From Bacteroidia bacterium (GTDB lineage Bacteria; Bacteroidota; Bacteroidia; UKL13-3): a DNA stretch of 64,000 nucleotides. The number at the start of each line of letters is the position of its first letter. The stretch's first letter is position 1. The notes beneath the pieces are model-generated. The model did no database searches, had not been told where the DNA came from, and saw nothing but the letters and a program-made list of their open reading frames with translations. The DNA lies in the NCBI GenBank assembly GCA_044239605.1, contig JBIIBC010000003.1, forward strand, positions 154,287 to 218,286, given 5' to 3'. This document shows positions 27,624 to 64,000 of the stretch, piece by piece. The translations under genes were made by a program, and so were the position numbers.

Positions 27624-27992
27624 ATGAGTAAAATTGACCGTTTTGAAGATTTAGATTGCTGGAAGAAATCAAGAGAGCTGGTGAATTTAATCTTTGATAT
27701 TTGCGAAAATCAAATGAAAAACAAAGATTTTTCTACTCAAGACCAAATAAAAAGAGCAGCATTATCAACTATGAACAATATTGCAGAAGGATTTGGTAGA
27801 TATAGTAATAAAGAGTTTATTCGTTTTTTGGAGTATTCAGCTGCTTCTTCAATGGAAATCAGAAGTATGTTTTATATTTTATCTGACAGAAAATATATTG
27901 ATGAAAATGAATTTGAAAAATGTTACAAACTAACAAATGACCTTACCAATACAACTTTAGGTTTGATTCGATATTTAAAAACAAAAATTTAA
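27624..27992 (+). CDS. Four helix bundle protein (23S rRNA IVS protein / bAvd-like, TIGR02436), copy 1
   Basis: RFEDLDCWKKS, DQIKRAALSTMNNIAEGFGR..KEFIRFL. Confidence 0.92.
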   Translation: MSKIDRFEDLDCWKKSRELVNLIFDICENQMKNKDFSTQDQIKRAALSTMNNIAEGFGRYSNKEFIRFLEYSAASSMEIRSMFYILSDRKYIDENEFEKCYKLTNDLTNTTLGLIRYLKTKI

Positions 27993-57330: not shown

Positions 57331-59502
57331 TTATTTCCACCCTCCTATCTTCGCAATTTTTTGCTGAATAATTTGATTATTAGCAAGGGTAATTTTTAAC
57401 ACATAAATACCTAAGGGCAAGTATGATAAATTCAGTGTTTTGCTTATGTTATTTTGATGGTAAACCAATTGACCTGCCATATTCGTTATTTCAAGTGTTA
57501 AAGGCTCTTCGGCCATTTCAAGATTTAGTTGATTGGTAAAAGGATTTGGATAAACCAATACATGAGGTTTTTCAATTGATTTTATACTCGTAGCATAAGC
57601 CAATTTAAATGCTTCATATACATTTATTTTACCCCAACCCCAATTATTAGTTGGCACCGCGCCTGTTTTAGCATCTACCCTAGCTGAGTTTTTAAGCATA
57701 GCTAATGCTTTAGCAGGTGTTAACATTCTATCGGCTTGCAGCATTAAAGCAACAGCTCCTGCAACACATGGTGCGGCAAACGAAGTTCCTGCCGACATTA
57801 CCCAATCATACCTAGTTCCATTATAAAAAACCGTATCGGTTATGTCGGTTATATCAAGTGGCGTAAAACTACTAATAGGCCCTCCCACAAAATAACCTGG
57901 AGCAGTAATATCCGGTTTTATTCTATTATCTGTACTTGGCCCGCGGCTTGAAAAACCAGTAATGGTATCTTTTTGCGAAATAGGATCAATGCTTTTGGTT
58001 CCGCCCCAAAAGTTTGTCCAATTAACGTTTGAATTATACGAACCAACTGCAATACTTGCTTTGCTATTAGAACCTGATTCGCCAATGGTGTATTGGTTAT
58101 TTCCCATTATGTAATTGGCTTTTATTGGCTGGTTTACCAAATTAGCTAAAAACTGCGGATAACCTTTGCTCCATTCGTAACCGCAGTTCCAAGCATGTAA
58201 AACCGTATTAGCCGATGTAAATGCAAACGAAACATAGTATTTATTGCAATTGGTATTTTCATAAATAATAAAAATTTCAGGCTTATTGTTATTTACATTT
58301 TCAGCAGTTGAAGTAATAGTATAAGTTAAAGTATCATTGCCAAAATACAAGTAATTACTTTCGTTTACATTGCCAGAGGCACTATAAAAAACACTTTGTG
58401 CTACTTGGTTTTGCAAAGTATCAAGCACCCTCATTTGAATATCAAAATCAGTATTTTCAGCACCCCAAAAGTTTACGGTATTGGTTTCTTTAGGTTTAGG
58501 TTTTCGGGTAAAATTACTAATGGTATAAAAAGTATCGTTTTGTAAATTTTGTTGCAAATGCAATAATTGTTTGCCTTCGTTACCTGCGGCATTTACCAAT
58601 ATTTTACCTGCACCTGTTAAGTTTTCTATTGCTTTATCAAGCAATGTAGTTCCATCGTGAGGACCAGCATGATGGCCCCAACTGATATTAATTACAGCAG
58701 GTTTATTTTGCGAAGCAGCATATTTAAAAATATAATCAATGGCATCAACAAAGGCCGGGCCAGCAGTATTTTTATCGTCTAAAAAAGTTTCGGTTCCATA
58801 ATTTAAAGCTACCAAAACTAAATCGGCATTAGGCGCCATGCCCCTATTGGCATTTCCTTTACCATAAATCCCAGCGCCAGCAGCTATACCTGCTACCATG
58901 GTTCCATGTCCATCGGTTGGCCTATCGGTTTGCGCTGTTTTATAATCAGCTACGGTAGTTAATTCGTTTCCATAATTATACCCAGTAGGCGCTTTTCCAG
59001 TTTTATTTTGTTCCCAAACACGTTTAATTCGGCAATTGCCATTGGCATCAAAAAAGGCAGGATTATTATAATCAAAACCAATATCAATAGCGCCAACTAT
59101 TATTCCATCGCCTTTATAAGCCATTGGTAAATCAATACCTTGATGCACCAAGTTGGTTTTGGTGGCTATCCAATCAGTATCTTGCATTAATGGCATGGCC
59201 GAAAACGATGCTTCTACATATTGCAAACCTTGTAAATCATTTAGCTTTTCTATTGCATAAATAGGAGCTGTTATACTCCAAATATTACCTGCTTTGGTTT
59301 GAACTGTAATGCCTAAATTGGTTAACAACGATTGGTTAAAACTTTTATCAACTTGTATAAGCGCACGCATGTTAATTGCATCTTTAGCTAACGATTTATT
59401 TTTAGCTAAATAAATACGTGTTAAAGGCGAAAGTTTGTTTTGCTGCGCAATGGTATTACTTAGTAAAACTATGCTAATAACAATGGTTAAAAATGATTTC
59501 AT
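57331..59502 (-). CDS. S8 subtilase with T9SS type A CTD
   Basis: Catalytic motifs GAIDIG, HGTMVAGIA and GTSFAAP; AAGNEG; C-terminal VYPNPF...GIYVLKI. Confidence 0.92.
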   Translation of the reverse strand: MKSFLTIVISIVLLSNTIAQQNKLSPLTRIYLAKNKSLAKDAINMRALIQVDKSFNQSLLTNLGITVQTKAGNIWSITAPIYAIEKLNDLQGLQYVEASFSAMPLMQDTDWIATKTNLVHQGIDLPMAYKGDGIIVGAIDIGFDYNNPAFFDANGNCRIKRVWEQNKTGKAPTGYNYGNELTTVADYKTAQTDRPTDGHGTMVAGIAAGAGIYGKGNANRGMAPNADLVLVALNYGTETFLDDKNTAGPAFVDAIDYIFKYAASQNKPAVINISWGHHAGPHDGTTLLDKAIENLTGAGKILVNAAGNEGKQLLHLQQNLQNDTFYTISNFTRKPKPKETNTVNFWGAENTDFDIQMRVLDTLQNQVAQSVFYSASGNVNESNYLYFGNDTLTYTITSTAENVNNNKPEIFIIYENTNCNKYYVSFAFTSANTVLHAWNCGYEWSKGYPQFLANLVNQPIKANYIMGNNQYTIGESGSNSKASIAVGSYNSNVNWTNFWGGTKSIDPISQKDTITGFSSRGPSTDNRIKPDITAPGYFVGGPISSFTPLDITDITDTVFYNGTRYDWVMSAGTSFAAPCVAGAVALMLQADRMLTPAKALAMLKNSARVDAKTGAVPTNNWGWGKINVYEAFKLAYATSIKSIEKPHVLVYPNPFTNQLNLEMAEEPLTLEITNMAGQLVYHQNNISKTLNLSYLPLGIYVLKITLANNQIIQQKIAKIGGWK

Positions 59503-59506
59503 TTGT

Positions 59507-60475
59507 TTATCCAATAATGGCTTTAATAATAAAAAATAAATTGAGTACCATATAACTGATTAGTACAATACGTGCTGCTTTTTTATCTAATTTATTGGCT
59601 CTTTTCAAATGGTTATTTTTAGCCAAGGTTAGAGAGTATACACTTAAAATAATGGTAACTAAAATACCAATAAAAGTTAAAGCGTGCAATGAATCGACCA
59701 AGGTAAAAGTGGAGGTTTCGGGCAAAATAGAATCGATAATATATTTATTACCAACCGCTGCAAATAAAGAGCCTACGCTTAAACCAAAACGTGATTCAAT
59801 ACTATCGGCATGAATAAAAAAACACATGTATGAAATGAAAAACGAAACATACATACATAAAAACAGTTTGAAAAATAAACCCCAAGCACTGCGTTCAATA
59901 AATATTTTCACATTAAAAGAGGCATAACTGGAGCGAGGTTCTTTTAATGAAATATCGCCAAAAGTACTTTCGTAAGTTTGCAAGCCTGTTACCACATCAA
60001 TTTTGCTTATATTCCAACCTGCAATGGTAAGTTCCGGGTCAAAGTGTTTACCAACAGTATCGGCTACAAAAACCAAACTACGCGAATCGAATTGTGAGTT
60101 TTCAATATGTACTTCCAATTGCTGTTTATCGAAAGGGTAATTATGCACACGCCACGATTCTTTCATTACGCATTTCATTTTCATGAGGGTAAATATTTCG
60201 CCATTGCTGGTATCGCTGTAATTATCGGTATTTTCAATTGATTTGGCATTGGGCACTTCTACATTTTTAGCAAAATCGTATTCTGTTTTTTTACACCTAA
60301 ACCATAACCAAAACCTAACAGTATATTCCTTTTGTCTGAAATCAATATCGTGTAAACTAATAAAATAAACACCCACCTTTACTGTATCAGGAACAACAGG
60401 TTCGGTATATGCTTTTACCTTGTTATTAAAAGCAAAAAGGAATATTACAAATAAGAAAACAACTTGTTTTTTCAT
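59507..60475 (-). CDS. Prokaryotic pentameric ligand-gated ion channel homolog
   Basis: Signal peptide; V.VGVYF..L.DID, FWLWF, loop-7 NYPFDKQ.L, pre-M1 R, four TM helices with M2 RFGLSVGSLFAAV and LP...FTLVD. Confidence 0.8.
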   Translation of the reverse strand: MKKQVVFLFVIFLFAFNNKVKAYTEPVVPDTVKVGVYFISLHDIDFRQKEYTVRFWLWFRCKKTEYDFAKNVEVPNAKSIENTDNYSDTSNGEIFTLMKMKCVMKESWRVHNYPFDKQQLEVHIENSQFDSRSLVFVADTVGKHFDPELTIAGWNISKIDVVTGLQTYESTFGDISLKEPRSSYASFNVKIFIERSAWGLFFKLFLCMYVSFFISYMCFFIHADSIESRFGLSVGSLFAAVGNKYIIDSILPETSTFTLVDSLHALTFIGILVTIILSVYSLTLAKNNHLKRANKLDKKAARIVLISYMVLNLFFIIKAIIG

Positions 60476-60692: not shown

Positions 60693-62108
60693 TTACCCTA
60701 AAGCCTTAATTTCACTCACTAATTGAGTCAAAGCTTTTTTTGCATCGCCAAATAACATGCTGGTTTTTGGCTTGTAAAACAATTCGTTTTCAATGCCTGC
60801 GTATCCTGCTTTCATGCTTCGTTTGTTTACTATTACATTTGTTGCATTTTCTACATCCAAAATTGGCATTCCGTAAATAGGTGAAGTAGGATCAGTTTTA
60901 GCTGCAGGATTAACCACATCGTTTGCACCCACTACTAATACTACATCAGTAGTAGCAAACTCAGGGTTTACTTCTTCCATTTCAATTAATTTATCGTAGC
61001 TAACATTACTTTCGGCAAGCAATACATTCATGTGTCCTGGCATACGTCCTGCTACAGGATGAATGGCATATTTTACATCAATGCCTTCCGCTTCTAATAG
61101 CAATTCTAAATCGTGTACAATGTGTTGCGCTTGTGCCACCGCCAATCCATATCCAGGAACAATGATAACTTTTTTAGCATATTTCATTAAAATGGCAGCA
61201 TCGCTTGCAGTTACTTCTTTAACTGTTCCATCAAAATTAGCTGAACCCATAGCTTCGCCAGTGGCACCACCACCAAAGTTTCCAATCAATACATTTACCA
61301 AAGAACGGTTCATGGCTTTACACATTACAATTGTTAGTAATGTTCCGGCAGAACCCACTAAAATACCACCTACCAACATTACTTTGTTATCGTATAAAAA
61401 TCCACCACAAGCCGCAGCCACACCAGTAAATGAGTTTAACAACGAAATTACAACAGGCATATCTGCACCTCCAATTGGCAATACAAACAATACTCCGTAA
61501 ATTAATGATAAAGCGAAAACAGCATAAAATAACTCAGCAGTGTAAGCTGTATTTCCTAATATCATCACTCCTGAAAGCACCAATATTACTAGCAATAAAC
61601 CAATATTGATTAACTGCTGCATACCTAATGATTTGTCTTTTACATTACCGCTTAATTTACCCCAAGCTATGATACTTCCAGCAAACGAAACCGAACCAAT
61701 GATTAAACCCAAAACAATGGTTAGTAAATGTCCAGCAGCTACGGTTGATAAATCAACTTCGGCTAAATGTTTAAACTCTATAATTGAAATAAGCATGGCA
61801 CAAGCGCCACCCATTCCATTGAATAAACTCACCATTTCGGGCATTGCGGTCATTTGTACTTTTTTGGCCACTATCCAACCAACTACAGCTCCAACAGCCA
61901 AAGCCGCAAAAATAAACCCAAGGTTATGCAAATGCGCCCCTGTTTCGGTGGTATATAAAAATATAGTTCCAAAAATGGCTATTACCATACCAAAGGCAGC
62001 CATTAAATTACCCTTGCGCGCAGTGGCAGGATTTCCTAAAAATTTTAAACCTGCAATAAAAGTTACTGAGGCAATAAGGTAGATTATTTGTAGTATGTTA
62101 TTTTCCAT
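60693..62108 (-). CDS. pntB: NAD(P) transhydrogenase subunit beta
   Basis: MTAMPEMV, IGGADMPVVISLLNS, VPGYGLAVAQAQ, HPVAGRMPGHMNVLLAE, GANDVVNP. Confidence 0.97.
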   Translation of the reverse strand: MENNILQIIYLIASVTFIAGLKFLGNPATARKGNLMAAFGMVIAIFGTIFLYTTETGAHLHNLGFIFAALAVGAVVGWIVAKKVQMTAMPEMVSLFNGMGGACAMLISIIEFKHLAEVDLSTVAAGHLLTIVLGLIIGSVSFAGSIIAWGKLSGNVKDKSLGMQQLINIGLLLVILVLSGVMILGNTAYTAELFYAVFALSLIYGVLFVLPIGGADMPVVISLLNSFTGVAAACGGFLYDNKVMLVGGILVGSAGTLLTIVMCKAMNRSLVNVLIGNFGGGATGEAMGSANFDGTVKEVTASDAAILMKYAKKVIIVPGYGLAVAQAQHIVHDLELLLEAEGIDVKYAIHPVAGRMPGHMNVLLAESNVSYDKLIEMEEVNPEFATTDVVLVVGANDVVNPAAKTDPTSPIYGMPILDVENATNVIVNKRSMKAGYAGIENELFYKPKTSMLFGDAKKALTQLVSEIKALG

Positions 62109-62177
62109 AAATTCGAAATTTAAAATTCGAAATTCGAAAGATATTTAGAAAATTCTAAGCTCGAAATTCGAAAATTT
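62109..62177 (-). repeat. AAATTCG heptamer tract, 3' arm of FHB cassette 2, abutting the pntB ATG
   Basis: AAATTCG AAATTTA AAATTCG AAATTCG ... AAATTCT AAGCTCG AAATTCG. Confidence 0.85.
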
Positions 62178-62196
62178 ATTTTGTGTTTTTTACTTT

Positions 62197-62565
62197 TTAT
62201 TTTTTTGTTAAATTTTTTAAAATAGACCCAAAAATCAACATCAATTCATGAGATTCCTGAATTAACTTTATTCTTTCTGATTCTAATATTTCATTATTTT
62301 CTGTATCAACTAATCGTAACCAAAACTTACTTTCTTTAGCTTCTTTTCTGCAAATTCTAACTTTCATTAGTTTGTCTTTTTCACCAAGGCTATCATTGGC
62401 TTCAATGTAATTTGCACCAACAGAACCAGATGAGCGAACTAGTTGCTTTCCATCTTCTATATTATTTATATTTCTTGGAAGTTTTTTAATAAAAAACCTA
62501 ACTTTAAGAGCAAACTGAAAAGTTCGTTCTTCTAAATCATATATTTTATTTACTTCTTCTTTCAA
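62197..62565 (-). CDS. Four helix bundle protein (TIGR02436), copy 2
   Basis: YDLEERTFQFA, KQLVRSSGSVGANYIEA, ICRKEAKESKFWL. Confidence 0.92.
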   Translation of the reverse strand: MKEEVNKIYDLEERTFQFALKVRFFIKKLPRNINNIEDGKQLVRSSGSVGANYIEANDSLGEKDKLMKVRICRKEAKESKFWLRLVDTENNEILESERIKLIQESHELMLIFGSILKNLTKK

Positions 62566-62586
62566 TTCTAGATTATTTATAAATTC

Positions 62587-62639
62587 TTCGAATTTCGGAT
62601 TTATTTTTTTCGAATTTCGTACTTAATTATTCGAATTTA
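62587..62639 (-). repeat. CGAATTT heptamer tract, 5' arm of FHB cassette 2
   Basis: CGAATTT CGGATTT ... CGAATTT CGTACTT ... CGAATTT, the reverse complement of AAATTCG. Confidence 0.85.
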
Positions 62640-62644
62640 AAGCC

Positions 62645-62938
62645 TTACTTTTTCTTCTTAAACATTTCCAGCATCCTATCGGTTACTACAAAGCCGCCTA
62701 CTACGTTAAGTGTTCCTAATACCACAGCTAAAAAACCAAGTATTAATGAAGCAACGTGTTCTGCTTGTCCCATTACAATAATAGAACCTATAATTACTAC
62801 GCCATGTATGGCATTAGCACCACTCATTAAGGGTGTATGTAAAACTGATGGCACATGGCCAATTAATTCAATACCTACAAATATCATTAAGATAATGAGG
62901 TAAAACATTTCGATGTGTTGGGTGATGAATGTTAACAT
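62645..62938 (-). CDS. pntA: NAD(P) transhydrogenase subunit alpha, membrane part (PntAB)
   Basis: VPSVLHTPLMSGANAIHG, NVVGGFVVTDRMLEMFK. Confidence 0.95.
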   Translation of the reverse strand: MLTFITQHIEMFYLIILMIFVGIELIGHVPSVLHTPLMSGANAIHGVVIIGSIIVMGQAEHVASLILGFLAVVLGTLNVVGGFVVTDRMLEMFKKKK

Positions 62939-62955
62939 ATTTTTATTTATGATTT

Positions 62956-63011
62956 TTGACTTGTTGATTATTAAATTTATTGATTGGGAGATTTAAAGAT
63001 TTGTTAATTTT
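62956..63011 (-). repeat. Period-8 tract (nnGATTnn), 3' arm of FHB cassette 3
   Basis: TTGACTTG TTGATTAT TAAATTTA TTGATTGG GAGATTTA AAGATTTG TTAATTTT. Confidence 0.75.
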
Positions 63012-63014
63012 ATT

Positions 63015-63386
63015 CTATTTATTTAATTTCATTGTTTTTCTTGATGCCGCCATAATTGATAATATTTCAAGCGCTTCTTGATGTAATTTTTTTGTTTTAT
63101 CATCTTTATTTATTTCAGATTCTATAATGATTTCCAACCATAATAAAGTTTCGTCAGCTTCTTCAACTACGATACTTAATTTAGAGAAAAACTCAGCATC
63201 AGACCTTGCCCTACATACTGCTCTATAATTTGCGGCTACTGATGTTGCAGAACGCAATAATTGTTTTCCAATTATTTTTGCTTCTTCCGTTTTAGGTAAA
63301 TTTCTATAAAATTTAACTATTTCAACTGCAAACAATTTTGTTCTTAATTTCAATTTATCGGCTGTCATCTTTTCATTATTCATCAT
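63015..63386 (-). CDS. Four helix bundle protein (TIGR02436), copy 3
   Basis: LKLRTKLFA, KQLLRSATSVAANYRAVCRARS..EFFSKL.IVVEEADET..WLE. Confidence 0.93.
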   Translation of the reverse strand: MMNNEKMTADKLKLRTKLFAVEIVKFYRNLPKTEEAKIIGKQLLRSATSVAANYRAVCRARSDAEFFSKLSIVVEEADETLLWLEIIIESEINKDDKTKKLHQEALEILSIMAASRKTMKLNK

Positions 63387-63392
63387 TTTCTT

Positions 63393-63440
63393 AATAATTA
63401 AATCAATAATTCAAAAAATCTCAAAATCTATAAATTGAAG
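63393..63440 (-). repeat. Period-8 tract (AATCnnnA), 5' arm of FHB cassette 3
   Basis: AATAATTA AATCAATA ATTCAAAA AATCTCAA AATCTATA AATTGAAG. Confidence 0.75.
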
Positions 63441-63441
63441 T

Positions 63442-63999
63442 TTACTTCAACAACTTCCCTTTGTGCGTTATAAATGTTCCTTTGGTTATTTCTTCTTCCA
63501 TTTCATATTTAAAGCCATCTTTGGTAGCTAAATGGGTCAATAAATTTTGAATGTTTTTGGCATACAATTCACTTGCGTTTTGTGGCAATGTACTAGGCAA
63601 ATTACTTTGACCAACAATGGTTACACCATGTTTGGTAACAGTTTTATTCAACTCACTTAACTCGCAATTACCGCCTTGTTCCACAGCCATATCAACTATT
63701 ACTGCGCCTAATTTCATTTGTTTTACTTGCTCTTCGGTAATTAAGACAGGTGCTTTTTTACCCATTACCAAAGCGGTTGTAATCACTAAATCAGCTTGGA
63801 ATAAACTTTTGTTTACTGCTTCTTTTTGTTTTAATAAATAATCAGCGCTTACTTCCTTAGCGTATCCACCTTCTACTTTAGCAGCTTCAGCATCTTTTAC
63901 TTCAATGAACTTGCCTCCTAAACTTTCAATTTGTTCTTTGGTTTCGGGCCTAACATCGGTACATTCAACTACAGCGCCTAAACGCTTAGCGGTGGCAAT
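63442..63999 (-). CDS. pntA: NAD(P) transhydrogenase subunit alpha, soluble part (PntAA), C-terminal portion; runs off window end
   Basis: Open frame IATAKRLGAVVECTDVRPETKEQIESLGGKF...GGYAKE...DLVITTAL..GKKAP...VDMAVEQGGNC. Confidence 0.95.
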   Translation of the reverse strand: MATAKRLGAVVECTDVRPETKEQIESLGGKFIEVKDAEAAKVEGGYAKEVSADYLLKQKEAVNKSLFQADLVITTALVMGKKAPVLITEEQVKQMKLGAVIVDMAVEQGGNCELSELNKTVTKHGVTIVGQSNLPSTLPQNASELYAKNIQNLLTHLATKDGFKYEMEEEITKGTFITHKGKLLK

Positions 64000-64000
64000 G

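Follow-up and report, generated by a model that had tools for sequence, protein, structure and literature searches.

The Bacteroidia bacterium considered here (GTDB lineage Bacteria; Bacteroidota; Bacteroidia; UKL13-3; assembly GCA_044239605.1) carries, at one end of a 64,000-nt stretch of contig JBIIBC010000003.1 (positions 154,287 to 218,286 of the forward strand; "the window" denotes this whole stretch), a pnt operon for transhydrogenase in which a small gene of a four-helix-bundle (FHB) family lies in each of the two internal junctions. The listing of open reading frames (ORFs) and scans with Pfam and NCBIfam profiles give the minus-strand order pntAA - FHB1 - pntAB - FHB2 - pntB, which bears out the first claim of the original prediction, made from the sequence letters, that both internal junctions contain an FHB gene. 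The pntAA|pntAB junction is referred to below as J1 and the pntAB|pntB junction as J2, and an FHB gene together with its flanking repeat arms as a cassette. The features are as follows, in window positions.

63442..64000, minus strand: 3' part of pntAA, dI subunit of transhydrogenase (PF01262; continues past the window end; 366 amino acids (aa) in the genome)
63387..63441, minus strand: 5' arm region of cassette 1 (55 nt, from the pntAA stop to the FHB1 start; GATTTTGA-type units; repeat I1 at 63396-63439)
63015..63386, minus strand: FHB1, 123 aa (TIGR02436/PF05635; lineage J1-A)
62939..63014, minus strand: 3' arm region of cassette 1 (76 nt, up to the pntAB start; AAATC-type units; repeat I1 at 62971-63014)
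62645..62938, minus strand: pntAB, 97 aa, four-transmembrane part of the alpha subunit (PF12769)
62566..62644, minus strand: 5' arm region of cassette 2 (79 nt; AAATTCGA units; repeat I2; the predicted stem begins 2 nt past the pntAB stop)
62197..62565, minus strand: FHB2, 122 aa, TTG start (TIGR02436/PF05635; lineage J2-a)
62109..62196, minus strand: 3' arm region of cassette 2 (88 nt; TCGAATTT units; the predicted stem reaches into the pntB start codon)
60693..62108, minus strand: pntB, 471 aa (PF02233)

Both FHB proteins belong to the TIGR02436/PF05635 family of four-helix bundles (S23p, Avd-like). FHB1 matches TIGR02436 at 6.5e-25 (87.5 bits; curated cut-off 24) and PF05635 at 5.7e-16 (59.1 bits; cut-off 33.8), and FHB2 matches the same profiles, with the same cut-offs, at 9.2e-18 (64.5 bits) and 2.1e-10 (41.2 bits). 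The AlphaFold2 model of FHB2 is a four-helix bundle (pLDDT 93.2), the nearest structures of which in the Protein Data Bank (PDB) are the chains of 2rld (TM-scores of 0.71-0.82), followed by 2gsc and then by Avd of diversity-generating retroelements (TM-scores of 0.66/0.72 with 4dwl_C and 0.61/0.66 with 8ub7_C). The sequence search reached only 2rld (9.8e-30) and 2gsc (3e-23) and fell short of Avd. Both 2RLD and 2GSC have five chains in a pentameric assembly. No nuclease, recombinase or transposase domain was found in the FHBs, the Pfam and NCBIfam matches of which are limited to PF05635, TIGR02436 and weak PRK12275 subfamilies. A kinship between FHB and HEPN proteins was considered and rejected (hhalign of 55 FHBs against the 7 HepT proteins found at pnt junctions, probability 0.4%). 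To our knowledge, no role is known for this large family, which has solved structures, outside retroelements and the intervening sequences (IVSs) of rRNA.

Because FHB1 and FHB2 are 30% identical and fall in different deep clades of the family tree, a tandem duplication of one FHB gene is ruled out. The original prediction had argued against such a duplication from the divergence of the two proteins and from the different arm units of the two inserts, and both observations hold: the arm families are indeed different.

Pairing of the arms and cassettes elsewhere in the genome

In cassette 1, the GATTTTGA-type and AAATC-type arms are 75% complementary over 44 nt and lie 381 nt apart; in cassette 2, the runs of AAATTCGA and TCGAATTT units are 78% complementary over 37 nt and lie 458 nt apart. 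When the whole insert is folded as RNA, the arms of cassette 2 close a long predicted stem (z -4.05, equalled by 0/100 shuffles) that starts 2 nt past the pntAB stop codon and includes the pntB start codon, and cassette 1 shows the same closure in a weaker form (z -1.57, equalled by 3/100 shuffles). Folding of the exact flanks gave z -3.4 for FHB1 and z -7.9 for FHB2, and in 130-nt windows compared with 200 control ORFs of the genome FHB2 reached z -6.4, with 0/200 controls as low. Complementary ends of the IVS type, which form a long stem, are present in the two cassettes, weakly so in FHB1 taken singly. A comparison of the raw duplex energy of 80-nt flanks with that of all 515 other ORFs of 100-150 aa barely set the cassettes apart, owing to the higher G+C content of coding flanks and to the more distant position of some arms; the 130-nt z-scores took its place.

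Arm pairing surpasses that of shuffles at z <= -3 in 37 of 44 pnt cassettes. In lineage J2-a, cognate arms pair with a mean energy of -27.7 kcal/mol, compared with -19.3 kcal/mol for swapped arms (1/5000 permutations as low), and the same comparison gave 3/5000 permutations as low for swaps within lineage J1-A and 0/5000 for 21 cassettes of all lineages. Among the pnt cassettes of the family, arm sequences track the FHB clades; within clade J2-a, the units are AAATTCGA/TCGAATTT in some genera and AAATTCTA/TAGAATTT in others, both arms changing together. Because the arms follow the clades, change together and are more stable in cognate pairs, the arms and the ORF form one heritable unit in which pairing is maintained.

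The genome contains 11 TIGR02436 matches, one of them with an internal TAA, and each of the 11 FHB genes is flanked by inverted arms of its own sequence, all of which differ. With 130-nt flanks, 6/11 cassettes show z <= -4, a value reached by at most 1/200 control ORFs (100-150 aa), and the other five, FHB1 included, lie between -1.1 and -2.0. The copies are dispersed and form no arrays, and all 11 lie between protein-coding genes, none in a 23S rRNA helix. A co-oriented gene is found directly downstream of all 11 cassettes and directly upstream of 9 of the 10 that have upstream sequence. In addition to the pnt junctions, the cassettes separate the partner genes serC|serA, korA|korB (alpha|beta of a 2-oxoacid:ferredoxin oxidoreductase), acrB|OMP (a pump of the resistance-nodulation-division type and an outer-membrane factor), paaA|paaB, fcl|gmd (GDP-fucose synthase|GDP-mannose dehydratase), an ABC ATPase and an FtsX permease, and nrdB|nrdA; one further cassette precedes a methionine synthase gene, and one, located in the window, heads an operon that starts with a homogentisate-dioxygenase-like gene, the gene upstream being on the opposite strand. 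Two of these copies can be specified as follows.

27624-27992, plus strand: third cassette of the window, FHB of 122 aa, with GTTTAAAG-type and CTTTAAC-type arms
24918-25259 of contig C38 (G000:C38, locus L009): FHB copy between the ABC ATPase and FtsX-type permease genes, with an in-frame TAA and decaying; the closest paralogue of FHB1

On the 3' side of pntB, a 217-nt gap is followed on the same strand by genes for a 322-aa membrane protein (59507-60475, minus strand) and a 727-aa subtilase-like protein (57331-59514, minus strand).

Distribution, lineages and turnover at the two junctions

A survey of pnt operons, as proposed with the original prediction, found 0, 1 or 2 FHB inserts across the loci of the family to which this genome belongs. 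In the family, pntAB is present in 113 of 119 genomes and 109 pnt loci, this genome included, were read, J1 being scored in 107, J2 in 105 and both in 103. In a sample of the class, from which two genomes flagged as unpublished were excluded, pntAB is present in 140 of 201 genomes and 83 loci from 33 other families were read; a search at the level of the order returned matches from the same family only. The junctions are empty or hold an FHB cassette, an arm-only hairpin or another insert (an MntA-HepT pair or a tRNA).

FHB genes occupy J1 in 14/107 family loci, all in this genus (14/17), and J2 in 32/105, in 8/17 genera; both junctions are occupied in 10 family loci, again all in this genus. 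Both gaps are shorter than 80 nt in 59/103 family loci and 52/78 class loci. The 54 family gaps of at least 200 nt consist of 46 with an FHB gene, 7 with a nucleotidyltransferase and HepT (at J1) and 1 without an ORF. All FHB genes in pnt gaps are on the operon strand (46/46 in the family, 10/10 in the class sample). In the class sample, FHB genes are found at J1 in 7/81 loci (four families) and at J2 in 3/80. Because these J2 loci all hold a J1 FHB gene as well (table 3, 4, 0, 71; Fisher p = 0.0005, the kin among these loci not being independent), the double arrangement recurs in three other families. The outcome that the original prediction had named as contrary to it, namely that both FHB genes are fixed members of the operon, is contradicted by the frequencies of 14/107 and 32/105 and by the empty junctions and replacements among close species.

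Other occupants of these junctions were also observed. In seven genomes of four other genera (L029, L030, L047, L064, L116, L117 and L118), J1 holds a toxin-antitoxin pair of an MntA-like nucleotidyltransferase and HepT (PF01934), which fills gaps of 609-651 nt on the operon strand without arms and was confirmed by Pfam in 5/7. A tRNA-Lys(CTT) gene, another processed RNA at J1, lies in the pntAA|pntAB gap of a locus of another family (L193:1372-1445, plus strand; ARAGORN). ORF-less hairpins of 82-106 nt (-30 to -55 kcal/mol) are present in further families, at J1 and J2 of L170 and at J1 of L164, L175 and L181; they are strong, G+C-rich or long and perfect, and resemble elements of the repetitive extragenic palindromic (REP) type.

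The family tree of 55 FHBs divides the J2 genes into three deep clades, namely a (19 rows, six genera, FHB2 included), b (5 rows, two genera) and c (8 rows, four genera), and the J1 genes into two, A (FHB1 included) and B. The nearest paralogues of FHB1 are the ABC and nrd cassettes, not FHB2. In a joint tree with the other families, J1-A (support 100/97) holds J1 genes only, from this genus and four other families, and J2-a (99/100) holds J2 genes only, from 6 genera and 3 other families. The foreign J1 genes fall in J1-A (6/7) or J1-B (1/7) and the foreign J2 genes in J2-a (3/3), and the arms of the foreign pnt cassettes match the flavour of their lineage. All relatives of FHB1 and FHB2 with at least 90% identity in the 19 genomes of the genus lie at the pnt locus; identity drops to 62% or less for the next best, a J1 allele from one species, and then to about 50%. 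Recent transposition has left no sign there. Nor do the cassettes resemble a family of miniature inverted-repeat transposable elements or REP elements: the arms differ in all 11 genome copies, non-cognate arms pair poorly and near-copies occur only at pnt. Of the "two independent insertions" in the original prediction, the separate origins are retained, on the grounds of FHB clades and arm families; the insertions are not recent and are better described as old, junction-bound lineages present in several families.

Relatives of the nrd cassette in other families have 33-60% identity and are located at other junctions, among them cysD|cysN (two families), nuoH|nuoI, two nuo antiporter-like subunits, hisB|hisH, hisA|hisF, mreB|mreC, murD|ftsW, ccmB|ccmC and imuB|dnaE2. 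They lie between co-oriented genes in 17/18 loci viewed, which, together with the co-oriented partners of the copies in this genome, agrees with the targeting of gene junctions suggested by the original prediction. FHB cassettes are found at cysD|cysN in two families (L205, L214) and between thiolase and NlpC-P60 genes in two genomes of one family (L218, L220). This recurrence hints that junction fidelity is not confined to pnt.

Cassette states are written here as J1 type/J2 type, with 0 for an empty junction. On a tree of the flanks (about 1.5 kb of pnt sequence), which may itself be recombinant, the cassette types are dispersed: A/a, 0/b and 0/a occur together in a single tight clade, and sister pairs combine A/c with B/arm-only and B/arm-only with 0/arm-only. 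The synonymous divergence (dS) of the cassette is often well below that of the flanks (0.46 vs 2.13 for two genera, 0.086 vs 0.41 and 0.35 vs 1.07), but in one comparison it is equal (1.28 vs 1.31) and in another it is above (1.92 vs 1.41), and for the J1 alleles of two close species the cassette dS is 1.5 and the flank dS 0.25. The age of a cassette thus often differs, in either direction, from that of the adjoining pnt genes. In one pair from different genera, the cassettes are 89-92% identical and the flanks 70-76%, and identity within the cassette steps from about 80% to 93-97%, which suggests an exchange between resident cassettes. A piece of a b-type 5' arm adjoins c-type cassettes.

The FHB ORFs are under purifying selection, with omega of 0.04-0.19 in the 12 FHB pairs with usable dS. 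Decay is also seen: 6/46 FHB frames in pnt gaps are short (82-126 aa) and lack a start codon up to the limit of the search, and two of these six (a J1 gene and a J2 gene) contain an in-frame stop; 4/16 J2 sites of the genus have only an arm-type hairpin of 89-118 nt (z -2.2 to -3.8). The two inserts are two independent, old, junction-bound and exchangeable cassettes rather than fixed members of the operon.

Tolerance of the inserts and rival explanations

In the 44 pnt cassettes, the spacing between the upstream stop codon and the arm duplex has a median of 5 nt and that between the duplex and the downstream start codon a median of 12.5 nt, and the FHB start codon is a median of 9 nt inside the loop. 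Because the duplex ends near the stop and the start, the predicted stem brings these two codons as close in space as they are in empty operons. A gene for RNase III is present in the genome, and no terminator-like site was found in either insert, both of which were scanned. Looping-out or processing at the RNA level, by which the original prediction accounted for undisturbed co-expression, would fit this geometry, the RNase III gene and the absence of terminators. Reverse transcriptase was not detected (0 PF00078 matches in the 99.9% complete genome, control genomes being positive).

The explanation held to be somewhat probable is that each pnt junction has its own IVS-type cassette, a four-helix-bundle gene between co-evolving arms, and that the cassettes belong to separate, old and exchangeable lineages and are tolerated by virtue of their stems. 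It combines the observed anatomy, common descent of arms and ORF, fidelity to one junction, turnover, purifying selection and decay. J1-A stays at pntAA|pntAB and J2-a at pntAB|pntB, and these lineages come and go, shrink to arm-only hairpins and pass from one species to another; the simplest route would be recombination between conserved pnt flanks and not transposition. In the transcript, the arms would pair to form a stem that opens about 5 nt past the upstream stop and closes about 12 nt short of the next start. This stem might be cut by RNase III, as in the IVSs of 23S rRNA, or it might bring the stop and start together so that translation stays coupled. The FHB protein, translated from the loop, would act for the benefit of the cassette and might bind cassette RNA.

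Several observations weigh against this explanation. The arms of FHB1 are weak by themselves (z -1.4 in 130-nt windows, with 30/200 controls as low); taken alone they are weak evidence, and the case is made by the relatives of FHB1. In a wobble test, in which sense and antisense duplex energies were compared with the aim of separating an RNA stem from DNA symmetry, the antisense duplex is slightly better in 13/13 J1 cassettes, and the J2 cassettes are mixed (16 better as sense, 14 as antisense, one tie); there is no sense preference, and a DNA structure fits equally well. In one J1 example, the antisense duplex has -43.2 and the sense duplex -24.6 kcal/mol, and additional hairpin segments of the B-type 3' flank may contribute to the antisense advantage at J1. 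One contig of 3529 nt, from an RNA library of a relative, spans the operon, with a J1 of 547 nt and a J2 of 128 nt, and further RNA-library contigs cover FHB2, its 5' arm and the end of pntAB; these contigs give no starts, ends or strand and cannot reveal a single transcript or a cut. Uncovered parts and a depth spike at 62136-62246 in these contigs, where loose ends are poly-T, were discounted as evidence. Approximately unbiased (AU) tests do not reject taxon clades within J1-A (p 0.17 and 0.30), and therefore deep descent with many losses and old transfers are indistinguishable. The fidelity of the nrdB|nrdA cassette was not reproduced, as 0/24 non-pnt loci of relatives had nrd flanks; because the nrd relatives are at other junctions, the claim of junction fidelity holds for pnt only. 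Finally, recombination through flanks of 70-76% identity is unlikely for the single inter-genus case.

A further proposal, which is put forward tentatively and is more doubtful than the explanation by stem-tolerated cassettes, regards FHB cassettes as site-faithful selfish "operon intervening sequences". A promoterless Avd-like gene and self-pairing arms would ensure harmless residence in mRNA, and perhaps the cassette's own copying into empty alleles of the same junction, with no known recombinase, nuclease or reverse transcriptase, in a homing-like cycle of invasion, decay, loss and re-invasion.

It is rather unlikely that the arms act in DNA, as hairpin or cruciform sites for a structure-specific recombinase or for template switching in replication, comparable to integron attC sites or IS200/REP elements, so that the cassette is a mobile unit at the DNA level and its co-orientation serves only expression of the ORF. 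Pairing that is nearly all Watson-Crick and equal or better on the antisense strand (13/13 at J1) would suit such a role, as would arms built of slippage-prone tandem units of 7-8 nt, the persistence of arm-only hairpins after loss of the ORF, and the b-type 5' arm fragment beside c-type cassettes, as from a nested replacement. However, near-identical copies at other loci are absent from the 19 genomes of the genus, the copy-specific arms provide no shared recognition sequence, the cassettes are dispersed rather than arrayed, and neither the strict operon strand nor the fit of the stem from stop to start is required by a DNA mechanism. This possibility is weakened overall, although no search aimed at recombinases was made.

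If the FHB genes are domesticated host genes for small RNA-binding factors that tune the output or stability of neighbouring cistrons, loss and replacement being neutral variation, then strong purifying selection (omega 0.04-0.19), the long persistence of J2-a (6 genera and 3 further families), the sites between subunit genes where the ratio matters, and the fold of Avd, which belongs to an RNA-protein complex, would all be expected. On the other hand, the operon works FHB-free, as 59/103 family and 52/78 class loci have short gaps at both junctions, unrelated lineages substitute for one another at one junction in sister species, and the genes decay to pseudogenes and bare arms; the toxin-antitoxin pair at the same junction in 7 genomes is what would be expected where selfish guests are tolerated. 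Domestication is thus judged improbable to a similar degree as a role of the arms in DNA. That both FHB genes are fixed, vertically inherited members of the pnt operon is very improbable: J2-a and J1-A are old and have never been found off their junctions, and the AU tests leave taxon clades standing, but FHB genes are sparse (14/107 and 32/105 in the family, 7/81 and 3/80 in the class sample), their pattern is a mosaic among sister species, and cassette dS departs from flank dS in both directions.

Significance and relation to known systems

In the cassettes described here, PF05635/TIGR02436 genes are found as cargo in the narrowest spacers that conserved operons have (pnt, nrd, nuo, his, cys, mre and mur). 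Two sites of the pnt operon, 300 bp apart, occur in nature as empty, filled, swapped and eroded alleles, and with this series the tolerance of a 500-nt insert between coupled cistrons, the role of the protein and the return to one site without a recombinase become testable. For annotation, small FHB genes and the repeat arrays adjoining them should be treated as belonging together. No account of FHB genes with arms in protein-coding operons was found by full-text search of the literature, which covered the main text of papers.

Several classes of transcribed or site-specific elements are comparable in part. Correia/NEMIS, ERIC and REP/BIME elements are transcribed palindromic repeats that form hairpins and are co-transcribed in operon spacers, and cutting by RNase III is reported for Correia elements. 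These elements occur as many near-identical, short, ORF-less copies, whereas each FHB cassette has its own arms and a conserved gene, and no near-copies elsewhere in the genome. Inteins and the homing endonuclease genes of introns are known for site-tied lineages, patchy spread, lateral exchange, and decay followed by empty sites. The FHB cassettes are likewise site-tied and patchy, with signs of lateral exchange and with decay followed by empty sites, but they encode no nuclease or recombinase domain, only PF05635. Avd of diversity-generating retroelements (PDB 4DWL and 8UB7) shares its fold with the FHB2 model, and one report links PF05635 to Avd (PMC10053308). Unlike a diversity-generating retroelement, the cassettes reside in a genome in which no reverse transcriptase was found, and Avd is beyond the reach of the sequence search. 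Nor were template or variable repeats seen, although no search aimed at them was made.

The IVS of Coxiella burnetii 23S rRNA, which carries an S23p ORF, is described as selfish and as excised by RNase III (PMC4990558). As in the pnt cassettes, an ORF of the PF05635 family lies in the loop of a long stem formed by complementary ends, inside a transcribed unit; according to the same report, such IVSs are regarded as selfish, were acquired horizontally and then inherited, have ORFs prone to decay and are excised by RNase III without rejoining (PMC4990558). The pnt cassettes differ in that they occupy the spacer of an mRNA operon, from stop codon to start codon, rather than an rRNA helix, in that their arms consist of copy-specific tandem units of 7-8 nt, and in that their ORFs are under purifying selection and several lineages alternate at each site. 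In the pnt cassettes, excision is putative. The closest known kin of the cassettes are the ORF-bearing IVSs of 23S rRNA, here within mRNA, and what is new is that a single operon holds two of them, that each keeps to its own junction and that they turn over.

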